From Eledone cirrhosa (taxonomy: Eukaryota): a stretch of DNA of 64,000 bases. The notes below the pieces were generated by a model. That model had not been told where the DNA came from and searched no databases. It saw nothing but the letters and a program-made list of their open reading frames with translations. The stretch is taken from the NCBI GenBank assembly GCA_964016885.1, contig OZ024750.1, positions 45,880,001-45,944,000 of the forward strand, in the 5' to 3' direction. Positions 7,483-20,097 of this stretch are shown here, piece by piece; the first letter of the stretch is position 1; every line of letters starts with the position of its first letter. A program made the position numbers and the translations under genes.

Positions 7483-7860
7483 TGTCAGTGTTGAACAAAA
7501 AGGTAACGTGGTTGCCTTAAACACAGTACGGCGTAATTCGGACTGTTTTTTTGTTTACAAACAAACCGAGCATTATAATAAATGTTCGGTAAACCGATAC
7601 GTGCATATATATGTGAGCATGTATGTAAATATATACATACTACTGTATGTCTGTATACATATATGTATGTACGTATACATACATACATACTTACATATAT
7701 ATATAAATATATATATATAAATATATATATATAAATATATATATTTAAATATATATATATAAATATATATTTACATATATATATATATATATATATATAT
7801 ATATATATAAAATATTAAACAAATAATGAACAAACAATTCCTTATATTAAACAAAAAAAG

Positions 7861-8015
7861 TTCACTATTTAACGATCGTTTCTAGGGTATATATGTGTTG
7901 TAATTGGTATGCATATTTAACAGATCTATGTACAAAATTATACAAAATTATACAAATTATCAAGATTAAATATACATACCTAACTCATATATACGCCGTC
8001 TTCAGAAATAATGAA
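7861..8015 (-). ncRNA. Type I hammerhead in PLE pseudo-LTR (long stem II)
   Basis: Minus strand: TTCATTATTT-CTGAAGA-cGGcGTATATATG...CATATATACCCta-GAAA-CGATCG-TT-AAATAGTGAA. Confidence 0.82.
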
Positions 8016-11000
8016 GTATATTTATTGATAATAACAACAATTCAAAATATCAGTTCAAAATTGACCAATGAAAACACAAAGGGTTAAAAAGCAGTTTGGT
8101 GTGTGTATATACATGTAAAACACTACACACATTTTACAATAATGTGTGTATAATCTGTATGTGCATACTAAAAAGATGGATGCAAATAAAAAATTTCAAG
8201 GTTAATATCTCTGTAAGCTTAATGCGCTGATAAGATACGCAATGATACTTATGGAGTCAAGCATATAAATATATTTTGTTCATACTCACACATATCAGTA
8301 TAATCACACATACATGTGCGTATATATATAAATATACACATAACCACGAACACACAAACACACACACTCCCCCACTCACATTTATATATGTGGATATAAA
8401 ATCATAAGCAAATAGAAATTAAGTCACTCACATAAACACACTGGTACACACATTTCAAGATCAAGATACAGAAATTAGGTGGGAGGGGGGGGGAGGGGTC
8501 AGTATTAGACTGTCAGACCAGACAACCTTAATATAAATGTATCTATAAATTATGAAAAATAAAAAAATAAAAACAATAAAATATAATACATATAATATAA
8601 TGTACATACGCATACAGATATACATACACATACAAACATGTATGCGCACATAGAGATATCTATACATACATACATACACACATACCTATACTGTCATACA
8701 CACACATACATTTACACGAACATACACATACACATATAAAAAGATATAAATACGGACACACACACGCGCAACACATACATACATACACATATATATATAT
8801 ATATATATATATATATATATATATACATATATATACACACACACGTAGACTCATATATATATACATACACATACATACATTTATACACAAACATATATAT
8901 CCCACACTCATACCACTATAAAAACACATACAAACATCCAGATGTATATATATATATATATATATATATATATATATATATATATATCAACATACACACA
9001 CGTACACACATATGTATATATACATACATATATACACACACACACATATATATATACACACACACACATAAAATACAGACATGCACATATATATATATAT
9101 ATATATATATTTCATTACTCTTATATATACACATAGTATATATACATACACAACCTCACTTATACACATATACACATAAGTTATATTACAATAATAATAA
9201 AGAATAATATATATATATATATATATATATATATATATATACATATATATACACACATATACACATATACATACACATACATACACATACATACATACAT
9301 ACACATACATACATACACCTAAATATAAACATATATAAATACACACATACGAATAAAGACATATATTCACACATAGACACCTATATTCACATATATATAT
9401 ATAAATATATATATATATATATATCTATATACACACACATACACATACATACACATATATATATATATATATATATACACATATACACACACGCACACAC
9501 ATACAGACACACATACACACTCACATATATATATATATATATATATATGTGTATGTGAGTGTGCGCAAATACATATATATATATATACACACACACATAC
9601 AAACACACACAAACTCATACATATGCATACGTACACACACACACACATATATCACATAGATACGAAGATAAACATATAAATAGAGAGACATACAAATATA
9701 TACAGAACCCATATACACATACATACAAACACGCATATACATATATATACATATATACACACATATATATTCCTATATACAAGCATACACATACACACAC
9801 ATATATACATATACATACACATATACATACCACACATTCACATACACGTACATATATAATACATATATATACATATATATACATACATATGTATGTACAA
9901 TCATATATACACACTCAATCTTACATTCATATTTACATGCTCATATATGTATTTTTATATTTAGAAATAAATACCAAAAAAAAAAAAAAAAAAAAAAAAA
10001 CCTATATAGACACCCATCTACACATATATTCATACATATACACTTACAAAAACAGATGATAATAGTATGGGGGAAAGGGGGGGTTTGGAGAAGGGGATCA
10101 AAGTAAATATATGTTTCAAGAAACATATAATATTTTCCATATCTTAATTCAATGTATGTTCCTACATATTTTCAGTGCTAGAAAATACGAAATCTATGCA
10201 TCACAAAATAAAAAAGTATACTATTAATCATATGTCAACTAAACCAAAGATAGTCAACATATTGATTTCCAAGGTATAAATTAGTTAGGTTTATAATATT
10301 TGAGGCAGAATTATGAAGTCAAACAGTAGTAGATTATTAATTACATTATAACTAAATTAAAGTTAATAACGTTATGGTATCAATATTAGGAGATGAATTT
10401 AGTAATAGGGAAAAGAAACCCAAATAAAAATAAAATAAAGTATTACATCGGTAGTAGCATATAAATTATATGTTAACTAAGTTAAAAATTATATATTTAT
10501 TTCAATAGTATATGTTAATTAGTATATGTTAATTAGGTATACAATACATAAAGCAGATATTGTATTTCATCAATAGCATAATATAATTATACGCAAATAA
10601 AAATCAAAATTAATACGCACACATATACATATACATACACATACACATACATATACATATACATACACATATATATATATATATATATACATATATATAC
10701 ACATACATACATATATAGTCACATAAATATACATACAGATACACATACAACACATACATATACATATACATATAGATATACATATCTTTTTCAAAAAATT
10801 TTTGCACAGAATATATTAACTAGGTATATATCCAAAAACACCTCCCATTCTATGATTACATGACATTCTGCAATTCGTCTGTACAAGGATACTAATTTTA
10901 AGCAAATTAAAGTTAAAATTAAAGTTTTAGGTTGATTAAAGCTAAAACCAAATAATAAATATATTTCCAAAATGTATATTAATTAGGTCAATAATACTAA

Positions 11001-11297
11001 AAATTCTTTCTCCGTCATAGGATACATGATATTATTTTGTTATATTTTATCTGTAAAAGAATTATAATAAAAAAAATTATAATAAAAGGTTAAACTAAAT
11101 TAAAAAATTATAATAAAAGGTTAAAATAAGTTAAAATTAATCTATAAATTAAATTACTGAATATATATTAGTAATATTTAAAGGTTTTTCAAAATTAATG
11201 ATTACATAATATTTTCTCATCTGTAATAAAATATTAATTAAATTAAATTTATAGGTTAACTAACATTTAAATTAAATTAAATTCTAGAATAATGTTA

Positions 11298-17510: not shown

Positions 17511-18991
17511 TTAATTAGGTTTATAATATTTAAATGTTTTTTTTAGTTTATGATTACACGATATAATTAATTCCTGTCTTTTATTTAATAAGATATCCCT
17601 AGACTTCATTATTTCAAATAGTTCTTGGGAACATAATCTACATTCCTTTCTATTATTTTGATAAGGGGTGGCTCTTTTGAGCACACTCCAGGTCAAATCA
17701 TATTTTATATTTTTATTTTTATAACTATTGATTTTTTCTGCTAGAGATGTTGTATTAGCCAGTGCGGCATTTTTAAAGCTATGTTTGTGGGTATTATATC
17801 TTGTCTTAAAATTGTTAGAGGTAGCTCCTATATATGAACAAATAGAATCTTTAGTTTTAACATTACATTTATAGACTATGTTGTTAACAAGACAATTCCC
17901 TTTTAATGGGCAGTTTGTTTTGTTTCTACAGTTACATCCTTTCGTTAATTCTGTATTTGAGGAGATATTATTGTTAATTTGATGTACTGGTGGTATACTT
18001 ATAGTTTTCTTACATTTATATGCATTATATGCACTTATATTTTGTTTTATGTTATTTGTTGTAGAATATGAGAATTTAACTGTAGACCTATTTAAGATTT
18101 GATGGTATTTGTGGTTTGGCGGGAAGTTTTTCTCAAGGATATAAAAAAATTTTTTAGCAATATTATCCTTAACTTGTAAATTAAAAGGAGCATTATACCA
18201 AGTAACTCGTCTATTACGGTTTCTATGTTGTTTATTATTTTTATTATTTTTATATGTTGTATCATGATTTTTACTAGGAGGAATAATGTTAATGATCTCA
18301 CCACAACTATTTTTAGTTATATTTGTAGATTTAGGTGTTTTATCTTTTTTATTAGGAGTTTTATTATTAATATTTATTATAGTCTTATGATGAGTAGTTT
18401 TTTGAGGGTTACTATACTTTATATTAAAAGATTTAGTATTTTGGGGTATACTGTGGGTGGCATTTAGGTGTGTACTTTTCATTTGGTGTTTGTTGGTAAT
18501 ATTATGCTGTATGCTTTCAGTATTTTTAGTAGAAGGTATATACTCTAATCTATTTTTGTGGCCACTTCTATCTAGAGCTTCATTATAAAAGGTCGCATTT
18601 TTATCAAATACATCTTGGTTAGAAGAAAGGTTAGAAATTCTAAGTGATATATTATATGCAAGGTTTTTAAGGATAGATTTAGGGTGATTAGATTGTGAGT
18701 GTATGTAATGTAAGTTTTGGTTAGGTTTATGGTAAGGTTGGTATATACCCGTAGCTAAATCTAAAGTTATATCTAGGAAATTTACTACTTTACTTGTTTT
18801 TTCAAAAGTAATATTAAGGTTATAATAGTCTTTAAGGAAAGTTCTAATATGCTTTTTGTTTTTTTCGATTTCTGAAAGGCTAAGGTTGTTAGAAAGAAGA
18901 AGACAGTCATCACGATATAAACCACCTTTGAGGTGGGGAAAAGAGGCATTTATGTTGAAAAGGAGAAAGAGGCCCACAAGATCAGTAATTT
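17511..18991 (-). pseudogene. 5'-truncated second copy of the PLE ORF (from just upstream of YRDD through the endonuclease)
   Basis: Protein identical to the C-terminal ~488 aa of the 11298-13739 ORF; truncated at the inversion junction. Confidence 0.9.
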
Positions 18992-19447
18992 CTGTATCTT
19001 GATCTTGAAATGTGTGTACCAGTGTGTTTATGTGAGTGACTTAATTTCTATTTGCTTATGATTTTATATCCACATATATAAATGTGAGTGGGGGAGTGTG
19101 TGTGTTTGTGTGTTCGTGGTTATGTGTATATTTATATATATACGCACATGTATGTGTGATTATACTGATATGTGTGAGTATGAAAAAAATATATTTATAT
19201 GCTTGACTCCATAAGTATCATTGCGTATCTTATCAGCGCATTAAGCTTACAGAGATATTAACCTTGAAATTTTTTATTTGCATCCATCTTTTTAGTATGC
19301 ACATACAGATTATACACACATTATTGTAAAATGTGTGTAGTGTTTTACATGTATATACACACACCAAACTGCTTTTTAACCCTTTGTGTTTTCATTGGTC
19401 AATTTTGAACTGATATTTTGAATTGTTGTTATTATCAATAAATATAC

Positions 19448-19602
19448 TTCATTATTTCTGAAGACGGCGTATATATGAGTTAGGTATGTATATTTAATCT
19501 TGATAATTTGTATAATTTTGTATAATTTTGTACATAGATCTGTTAAATATGCATACCAATTACAACACATATATACCCTAGAAACGATCGTTAAATAGTG
19601 AA
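19448..19602 (+). ncRNA. Type I hammerhead in the inverted PLE terminal segment
   Basis: TTCATTATTT (19448-57), CTGAAGA (19458-64) ... GAAA (19581-84), CGATCG, TT, AAATAGTGAA (19593-602). Confidence 0.82.
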
Positions 19603-20097
19603 CTTTTTTTGTTTAATATAAGGAATTGTTTGTTCATTATTTGTTTAATATTTTATCTTGACTCTGTATACCGTTTATCTTTCACCGAAATTGGATTTTC
19701 ATTACATCTCTTCTTTCCATGATATCCGGAATACATTGAGTTCTTCATACGGATTGGACACTACCGTAAACTCTTGGTAGATTTATCTACATATATATAT
19801 ATATATATATATATATATATATATATATATATATATAAATATATATATATATATATATATATATATATATATATATATATATATATATATATATATATAT
19901 ATATATATATATATATATATATATATATATATATATATATATATATATATATATATATATATATATATATATATATATATATATATATATATATATAAAT
20001 ATATATATATATATATATATATATATATATATATATATATATATATATATGAAATACGTAAATAAGAAAGTTATGAAAATTGACTTACTAAAATTTC

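Follow-up and report, generated by a model that had tools for sequence, protein, structure and literature searches.

The 64,000-nt stretch of Eledone cirrhosa contig OZ024750.1 analysed here in its entirety (the window) contains, at positions 7807-19793, a locus that is probably a very young insertion of a Penelope-like element (PLE), with an intact open reading frame (ORF) that suggests competence. The sense strand of the element is the minus strand, along which an inverted arm, a 5′-truncated unit of 4963 nt and a full unit of 6222 nt follow each other, with (TA)n on both sides (table 1). The layout described for PLEs consists of a partial tandem, whose 5′-truncated copy is the pseudo-long terminal repeat (pLTR), an adjacent inverted 5′-truncated copy and a tail at one end (PMC8557442); partial tandem, inverted copy and tail are all found here.

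Window self-comparison and exact alignment place the direct repeat at 7807-12778 and 14029-18991 with a period of 6222 nt, i.e. (6222+4963)/6222 = 1.80 units. Exact alignment over 4963 nt reveals two substitutions between the copies (8278 G/14500 T and 10182 A/16395 G) and five length changes, which fall in G, AT, TA, AT and A runs (1, 2, 4, 2 and 8 nt, respectively); the portion of the ORF common to both units (11298-12778 and 17511-18991) is identical. The inverted arm is the reverse complement of 13892-14699 at 808/808 positions; compared with the distal copy there is one difference in 671 positions, at which the arm carries the T allele (14500 T, 8278 G). At its junction the two orientations overlap by TAATTT, a microhomology that exceeds chance, overlaps of at least 6 nt being found in 0.4-0.8% of 200,000 random junctions.

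A previous interpretation made from the letters only (the sequence-only reading) had described a young, potentially active PLE that forms a 1.8-mer in (TA)n, its 6222-nt monomer being defined by hammerhead spacing and its inversion going through a 6-bp microhomology at 18986-18991. The data given above bear out this description, the cut sites of the direct hammerhead copies (7871 and 14093) being 6222 nt apart. That the inverted arm has the allele of the middle repeat was also correctly noted, at positions (~14496 and ~8274) that need to be corrected to 14500 and 8278. The allele, however, adds little to the argument, because the arm spans the unit junction, which is present only at the middle repeat, and because one single-nucleotide polymorphism (SNP) cannot separate an error of the reverse transcriptase (RT) from a later mutation.

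The right TA flank (about 257 nt) can be compared with a pure run of 34 nt on the left, and a target-site duplication is unreadable inside such tracts. The abundance of microsatellites in the window is reminiscent of cephalopod genomes. AT/AC microsatellite runs make up 32% of 7807-11297; the 3′ spacer is possibly captured host DNA, and a scan of it for an older ribozyme or an internal tandem unit found none. Outside the locus, no further copy of the ORF, tail or 5′ untranslated region (UTR) of the element was found in the window.

A canonical-core type I hammerhead is predicted near the 3′ end of the element by a purpose-written descriptor scan of the window, with a 10-bp stem I, a CUGAAGA core, a 116-nt stem II and a palindromic stem III. 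The unconstrained minimum-free-energy fold gives the three-way junction (z = -5.04), and none of 200 shuffles was as stable. Among the 150 of 170 Rfam matches listed there was no hammerhead; the matches (miRNA and similar) were dismissed as noise, being driven by microsatellites and all below the gathering score. The ribozyme body is 155 nt long, as opposed to 40-60 nt in 24/24 of the published Hydra-clade rows used (24 of the 26 of the table in PMC8557442, leaving out the antisense Penelope-13_HM and the 5′ Penelope-18_HMa). A long stem II is not unique to the element, because the stem II of the other ribozymes in the window spans 14-88 nt.

Table 1. Features of the PLE locus, in coordinates of the window; + distances are nt past the hammerhead cut site, and start sites are putative.
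Position	Strand	Feature	Remarks
7775..7808	.	Target flank on the left, (TA)n	Pure run, 34 nt; imperfect TA back to about 7700
7807..14028	-	Full unit, 6222 nt: 5′ UTR, ORF, 3′ spacer, hammerhead, short end	Alignment
7807..7809	-	Short end, +62 to +64	ATA common with (TA)n; RT start site 1
7861..8015	-	Type I hammerhead, distal copy	Cut site, 7871; core, 8005
8016..11297	-	Non-coding 3′ spacer, ~3.3 kb	AT/AC microsatellite-rich
11298..13739	-	Intact ORF P0001, 813 aa	N-terminal region (RWR, DKT), RT, thumb, linker, C-terminal GIY-YIG endonuclease (EN)
11337..11723	-	CxCx5Cx5C linker and GIY-YIG EN	
12006..12317	-	In-frame N/K/T-rich insert, ~95-100 aa	Between thumb and linker
13892..14028	-	Tail (137 nt) separating the two end points	In 5′ UTR of full unit
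14029..18991	-	Second unit, 5′-truncated inside RT; 4963-nt pLTR	Alignment
14083..14237	-	Type I hammerhead, middle copy	Cut site, 14093
18986..18991	.	6-nt microhomology at head-to-head inversion junction	TAATTT
18986..19793	+	Inverted arm, 808 nt	Made up of the 137-nt tail and 671 nt from the 3′ end; exact alignment
19448..19602	+	Type I hammerhead, inverted copy	Cut site, 19592, following GUU
19791..19793	+	Long end, +199 to +201, immediately 3′ of a predicted short hairpin	ATA common with (TA)n; RT start site 2
19792..20049	.	Right (TA)n flank, ~257 nt	Two interruptions; common to neighbouring hammerhead element 20050-20857

The ORF product and its clade

The ORF of P0001 runs without internal stop and encodes the RT (D252 and YRDD at 346-349), followed by the EN with Y694, YIG (707-709), R718, H722, CxxC (771-774), E777, N790 and CxH (799-801). 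Of the 7999 candidates scored in a search with P0001, 117 were relatives with E ≤ 1e-10, 31-48% identical to it; 66 shorter ones have identities up to 55%, the sole named match being a protein of Octopus sinensis. In the alignment of 75 of the 117 relatives, picked mainly by length, YRDD, D252, YIG and the R, H, E and N of the EN, all present in P0001, are conserved in 71/75. Conserved non-catalytic positions that deviate in P0001 include N197C, P258S and P588A, the first two being variable in its nearest relatives too. The N/K/T-rich insert corresponds to residues ~475-578 and brings the linker interval to 164 aa; in the 101 stored proteins with both anchors the median is 70.

Members of the Hydra clade of PLEs are characterized by a C-terminal EN, RWK and DKT motifs, a CxCX5C linker, CxxC and CxH in the EN, hammerheads and (TA)n targets; they have no CCHH finger and no IFD, and GxKF/Y is not conserved (PMC8557442). 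Matched motif by motif, the sequence of the element assigns it to this clade. The RT (252-349) precedes the EN (694-790), and the RT is upstream of the cysteine linker in 68/68 stored proteins with both patterns (of 118). The RWR of P0001 (37-39) is shared with 21 of the 75 relatives, 33 having RWK, and its DKT (115-117) with 66, the other nine having DKS; no GxKF/Y motif is present in P0001. The four linker cysteines (C673, C675, C681 and C687) are found together in 71/75 relatives, C771/C774 in 72/75 and C799/H801 in 71/75. The linker pattern is also seen in the published rows of Fig. S7 of PMC8557442, where the motifs of P0001 align by eye with the Hydra rows. The RT3-RT4 spacing is 63 in P0001, 61-63 in 63/75 relatives and, counted by eye, 63 in Hydra-1_Amil; there is no IFD, and the sole CxC of P0001 lies in the linker, none being N-terminal. 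The canonical CCHH finger is absent from the EN, where a compensating finger may take its place. Both flanks are (TA)n, as for Hydra targets, with the caveat that this is a single insertion and that (TA)n is plentiful in the window.

Other clades were considered and rejected. The CX2-5CxxC finger upstream of GIY-YIG that would mark Neptune or Nematis is absent from P0001 (it occurs in 2/118 stored proteins), and for Penelope/Poseidon DKG and no cysteine linker would be expected, whereas P0001 has DKT and the four-cysteine linker. The sequence-only reading had placed the element in Naiad, taking CxCx5Cx5C and CxxC as Naiad motifs; both belong to the Hydra clade. Naiads do share with the element a preference for (TA)n, the tandem and inverted layout and an occurrence in cephalopods, Octopus among them, but they have an N-terminal GIY-YIG EN, DKA, a CxC domain and an IFD, and lack canonical hammerheads (PMC8557442). 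With its C-terminal EN, DKT rather than DKA, no CX2-5CxxC, no N-terminal CxC, a canonical-core hammerhead and a Hydra-like RT3-RT4 spacing of 63, the element could hardly be a Naiad at all, the order of RT and EN being enough to refute it.

Some results speak against, or fail to sustain, the assignment to Hydra. A Pfam search of P0001 gave no family, and the sole RT match, obtained via the family profile, was to a retron RT (E=0.003); Pfam GIY-YIG was found, below threshold, at the C-terminus of 3/11 relatives and not in P0001, and a PDB search with the single P0001 sequence gave chance matches only. The tree, in which P0001 groups with P0002, P0004, P0007 and P0009 (support 1.0), took in P0001 and relatives without clade names; Hydra is called by motifs and domain order. 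Furthermore, P0001 has two cysteines between GIY and YIG (C696 and C705) where 66/75 relatives have none; their positions are not conserved and their spacing is C-x8-C, in contrast to C-x1/2-C in the Neptune rows.

Ends, template and priming

The 137-nt difference between the two outer ends, on which the sequence-only reading had not remarked, is the known PLE tail, i.e. it reflects two RT start sites. Since the ends lie at +64 and +201, the template must have spanned the cut site, be it as an uncut multimer, as a circle or through end-to-end jumps. All three junction crossings are exact, with no bases gained or lost. In the 24 Hydra consensus rows used, whose ends past the cut site were computed from the table in PMC8557442 and are accurate to a base or two, ten ends lie at +30 to +48, 11 at +88 to +153, two at +63 to +70 and one at +355; the distribution is bimodal, most ends falling in two groups. 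The Anolis Poseidon protein has been found in vitro to cut and extend both strands of its target, to prefer AT-rich DNA and to begin reverse transcription inside the RNA, at two sites which delimit the tail; ribozyme cleavage is not needed, and ribozyme-uncut RNA is mainly used (PMC11167929).

The reading we favour, and consider reasonably probable, is that an autonomous PLE of the Hydra clade inserted very recently, in a single event in which both target strands were primed at two RNA sites on a template longer than a unit. A (TA)n tract would have been cut on both strands by the GIY-YIG domain; one 3′-OH would have primed reverse transcription at start site 1 (+64), which would have run for 11.2 kb and crossed the ribozyme junction twice, and the other would have primed at start site 2 (+201) and run for 0.8 kb. 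The two cDNAs would then have annealed through their 3′ ends at TAATTT, the gap being closed by host repair. A template exceeding unit length at the ribozyme site could derive from uncut read-through of a tandem source, which is slightly favoured, or from a religated 6222-nt circle. SNPs failed as a test between circle and linear multimer, RT error, inheritance and later mutation all being compatible with them; indeed, two differences in ~10 kb fit RT error at an assumed rate of 1e-4 per base (P = 0.26). The ~5-kb repeat, from whose length the sequence-only reading judged a circular or concatemeric template plausible, is not special evidence for a circle, a pLTR being simply a 5′-truncated tandem copy and circular as well as multimeric templates having been published as ideas.

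Other predicted hammerhead elements of the window serve as internal controls. The one at 20050-20857, which adjoins the right TA tract of the main element, has a 522-nt period (~1.3 units) and a 148-nt inverted arm, with ends at +53 to +57 and at +174; its arms are 94-96% identical, hence older. A tiny head-to-head insertion of the same family (2590-2730), lying between TA runs and consisting of two end pieces only, uses the same two end sites; its arms cover ~+12..+57 and +90..+174, with no overlap on the template. The element at 55123-55857 has an 88-nt stem II, a 252-nt inverted arm (99% identical) and (TA)n ends at ~+45 and ~+156. A 310-nt retrozyme array (1-1859) is formed by ~4.2 near-identical plus-strand copies with a type I hammerhead per unit and one difference among four full units; its end lies within a brief stretch of TA (+132 to +139), and its inverted arm runs off the start of the window. 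Further type I hammerheads at 25400-25597 and 44320-44426 end in (TA)n at +39 and +52, respectively, the former with two hammerhead cores 97 nt apart and a weak relative near 57700-57980. Between the main element and the retrozymes of the window there is no significant sequence similarity beyond AT-rich matches.

Three of these neighbours (20050-20857, 2590-2730 and 55123-55857) have both ends visible, and each pairs a short with a long end. In all four insertions (4/4), the main element included, the short end falls at +43 to +64 and the long end at +156 to +201, 111-137 nt apart. If every end took one of two sites at random, such pairing in all four would be expected in 1 of 16 cases, and it is no more than suggestive.

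A number of observations weigh against two-site priming or lessen its force. The homology of the ends to (TA)n, which the sequence-only reading was right to describe as outer ends merging into the tract, is real yet weak: it amounts to 3 nt (ATA) at each end, and 14% of random junctions, drawn from the first 250 nt after the ribozyme, share as much at each end. For Anolis Poseidon, reverse transcription is initiated in vitro without homology (PMC11167929). The element is present as a single copy in the window, so that its own two ends are seen once only; the long end of the 55123-55857 element is without a second copy to confirm it, and the activity of the main element is read from the intactness of its ORF alone. 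Moreover, the 1-1859 retrozyme inverts at a hairpin with a 4-nt loop (541-544), the signature of fold-back self-priming, and a second route to inversions thus operates in this genome.

That second route leads to an alternative which is unlikely, though to be taken seriously, for the same Hydra element: the cDNA would have stalled at 18991, annealed at TAATTT to its own earlier part at a distance of 4.3 kb, used itself as template for 808 nt and been captured by the other target end at ATA. Such a fold-back would explain why the arm reproduces the middle junction perfectly, T allele included, and self-priming has already been proposed for PLE inversions (PMC3846280), besides the hairpin junction of the retrozyme. 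However, it requires a 4.3-kb loop rather than a snap-back, and does not predict fixed second ends, yet the neighbouring family reuses the same two. Nor do the arms of 2590-2730 overlap, and they therefore fit two primers on RNA, copying of nascent cDNA needing an added deletion.

A more elaborate form of two-site priming, which we regard as speculative and rather doubtful, has a dimeric PLE ribonucleoprotein (RNP) that holds both cut strands, primes at two fixed tail sites and copies a ribozyme-made 6.2-kb circle repeatedly. [quoted passage not shown] If such an RNP and circle did exist, a short end would be paired with a long one in every inverted insertion, the neighbouring retrozymes would be mobilised by the same machinery, and a demonstration could make use of the intact Hydra copy with its 116-nt stem II and 137-nt tail.

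It is improbable that the template was a ribozyme-cut, non-circularized monomer on which the RT began 64 nt away from the 5′ end of the RNA and then jumped, end-to-end, to the 3′ end of that monomer or of another cut one, giving seamless concatemers. Template jumping is a property of non-LTR RTs, and would yield a cut-site junction that is equally seamless; the ribozyme folds well (z = -5.0), and its palindromic stem III suits dimers. Against it stand the exactness of all three junction crossings and the observation, in vitro and by RNA-seq, that cut RNA is not the main substrate of another PLE (PMC11167929).

An assembly artefact (false duplication or wrong unit count), which the near-identity of the copies (two substitutions in 4963 nt, most differences being in simple repeats) could bring to mind, is very improbable because the host flank is not duplicated, both ends are at element-type sites, the inverted arm independently repeats the unit junction and three unrelated insertions of the window share the layout; the locus may be a collapsed longer array (e.g. 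2.8 units).

Related systems and other features of the window

The closest known system is the Hydra clade itself, which includes Hydra-1_Obim of Octopus bimaculoides and shares with the element a single ORF with RT followed by GIY-YIG and no IFD, RWK-type and DKT motifs, the CxCx5C(x5C) linker, CxxC and CxH around the E and N of the EN, a type I hammerhead near the 3′ end and (TA)n targets, one listed member also having an inverted 5′-truncated copy (PMC8557442). Counted by eye, 18 of the first 45 residues of P0001 match Hydra-1_Obim, and identities to the best database relatives are 32-55% over full or partial length, which makes the element a separate Hydra family. The 6.2-kb unit, the ~95-aa linker insert, the 116-nt stem II and the 137-nt tail are unusual for Hydra: the unit of 6222 nt compares with a size given as ‘generally <3 kb’, a typical and not a defining value (PMC8557442), and the long end at +201 exceeds 23/24 of the tabulated Hydra ends.

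Poseidon PAc of Anolis carolinensis also forms tandems in AT-rich targets and has its hammerhead upstream of the two sites that bound the tail, but belongs to another clade and has a tail of the 30-40-nt type inside the start of the ORF, versus 137 nt in the 5′ UTR here (PMC11167929); it extends both strands in vitro. In Pen1/Pen2a of Adineta vaga the inverted pLTR overlaps the direct one, the tail is optional, N-rich in-frame inserts separate RT and EN, and a long spacer between ORF and 3′ pLTR is ascribed to captured host DNA, as may apply here; unlike the element, they are not Hydra, their spacers measure 0.9-1.5 kb and target-site duplications are discernible (PMC3846280). Non-LTR retrozymes, proposed to be non-autonomous PLE derivatives, likewise consist of tandem units with one type I hammerhead each, but are short and non-coding, the element being of the autonomous kind (bioRxiv 10.64898/2026.07.22.740005). 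Several retrozymes of the window show the layout of the element. For O. vulgaris, 336 recently active Penelope-like insertions have been reported in a paper whose main text leaves Hydra unmentioned (PMC13282606).

The element is a new family within the known Hydra clade, and each of its structural features has a precedent in some PLE clade. The locus itself leaves existing knowledge of PLEs unchanged, the layout being the usual PLE footprint and Hydra being known from Octopus. Hydra elements have been described from consensus sequences, many of them incomplete (PMC8557442), and biochemical work on the clade did not turn up in our literature search. With its intact ORF, a tandem of near-identical units offers a natural full-length protein and RNA, i.e. 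a good candidate for reconstitution, with which could be tested what targets (TA)n in an EN lacking the canonical CCHH finger, priming of both strands at two sites and circularization of PLE RNA.

Beside the left TA flank, 7227-7699 is occupied by a ~470-nt element resembling a miniature inverted-repeat transposable element, with 93-nt terminal inverted repeats (94% identical) and no other copy found in the window. An ORF fragment at 4230-4604 has an RT-like motif that we take to resemble L1/Tx1-type long interspersed nuclear elements (LINEs). Short ORFs at 22773-23153 (+) and 48250-48645 (-), presumably akin to the restriction-like endonuclease end of an R4/Dong-type LINE, have dispersed copies that are 87-90% identical (23120-23858 versus 47594-48357, and 47904-48656 versus 54390-55127). 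Finally, a minisatellite with a ~62-nt period extends over 3.2 kb at 27623-30801, its copies being ~88% identical.

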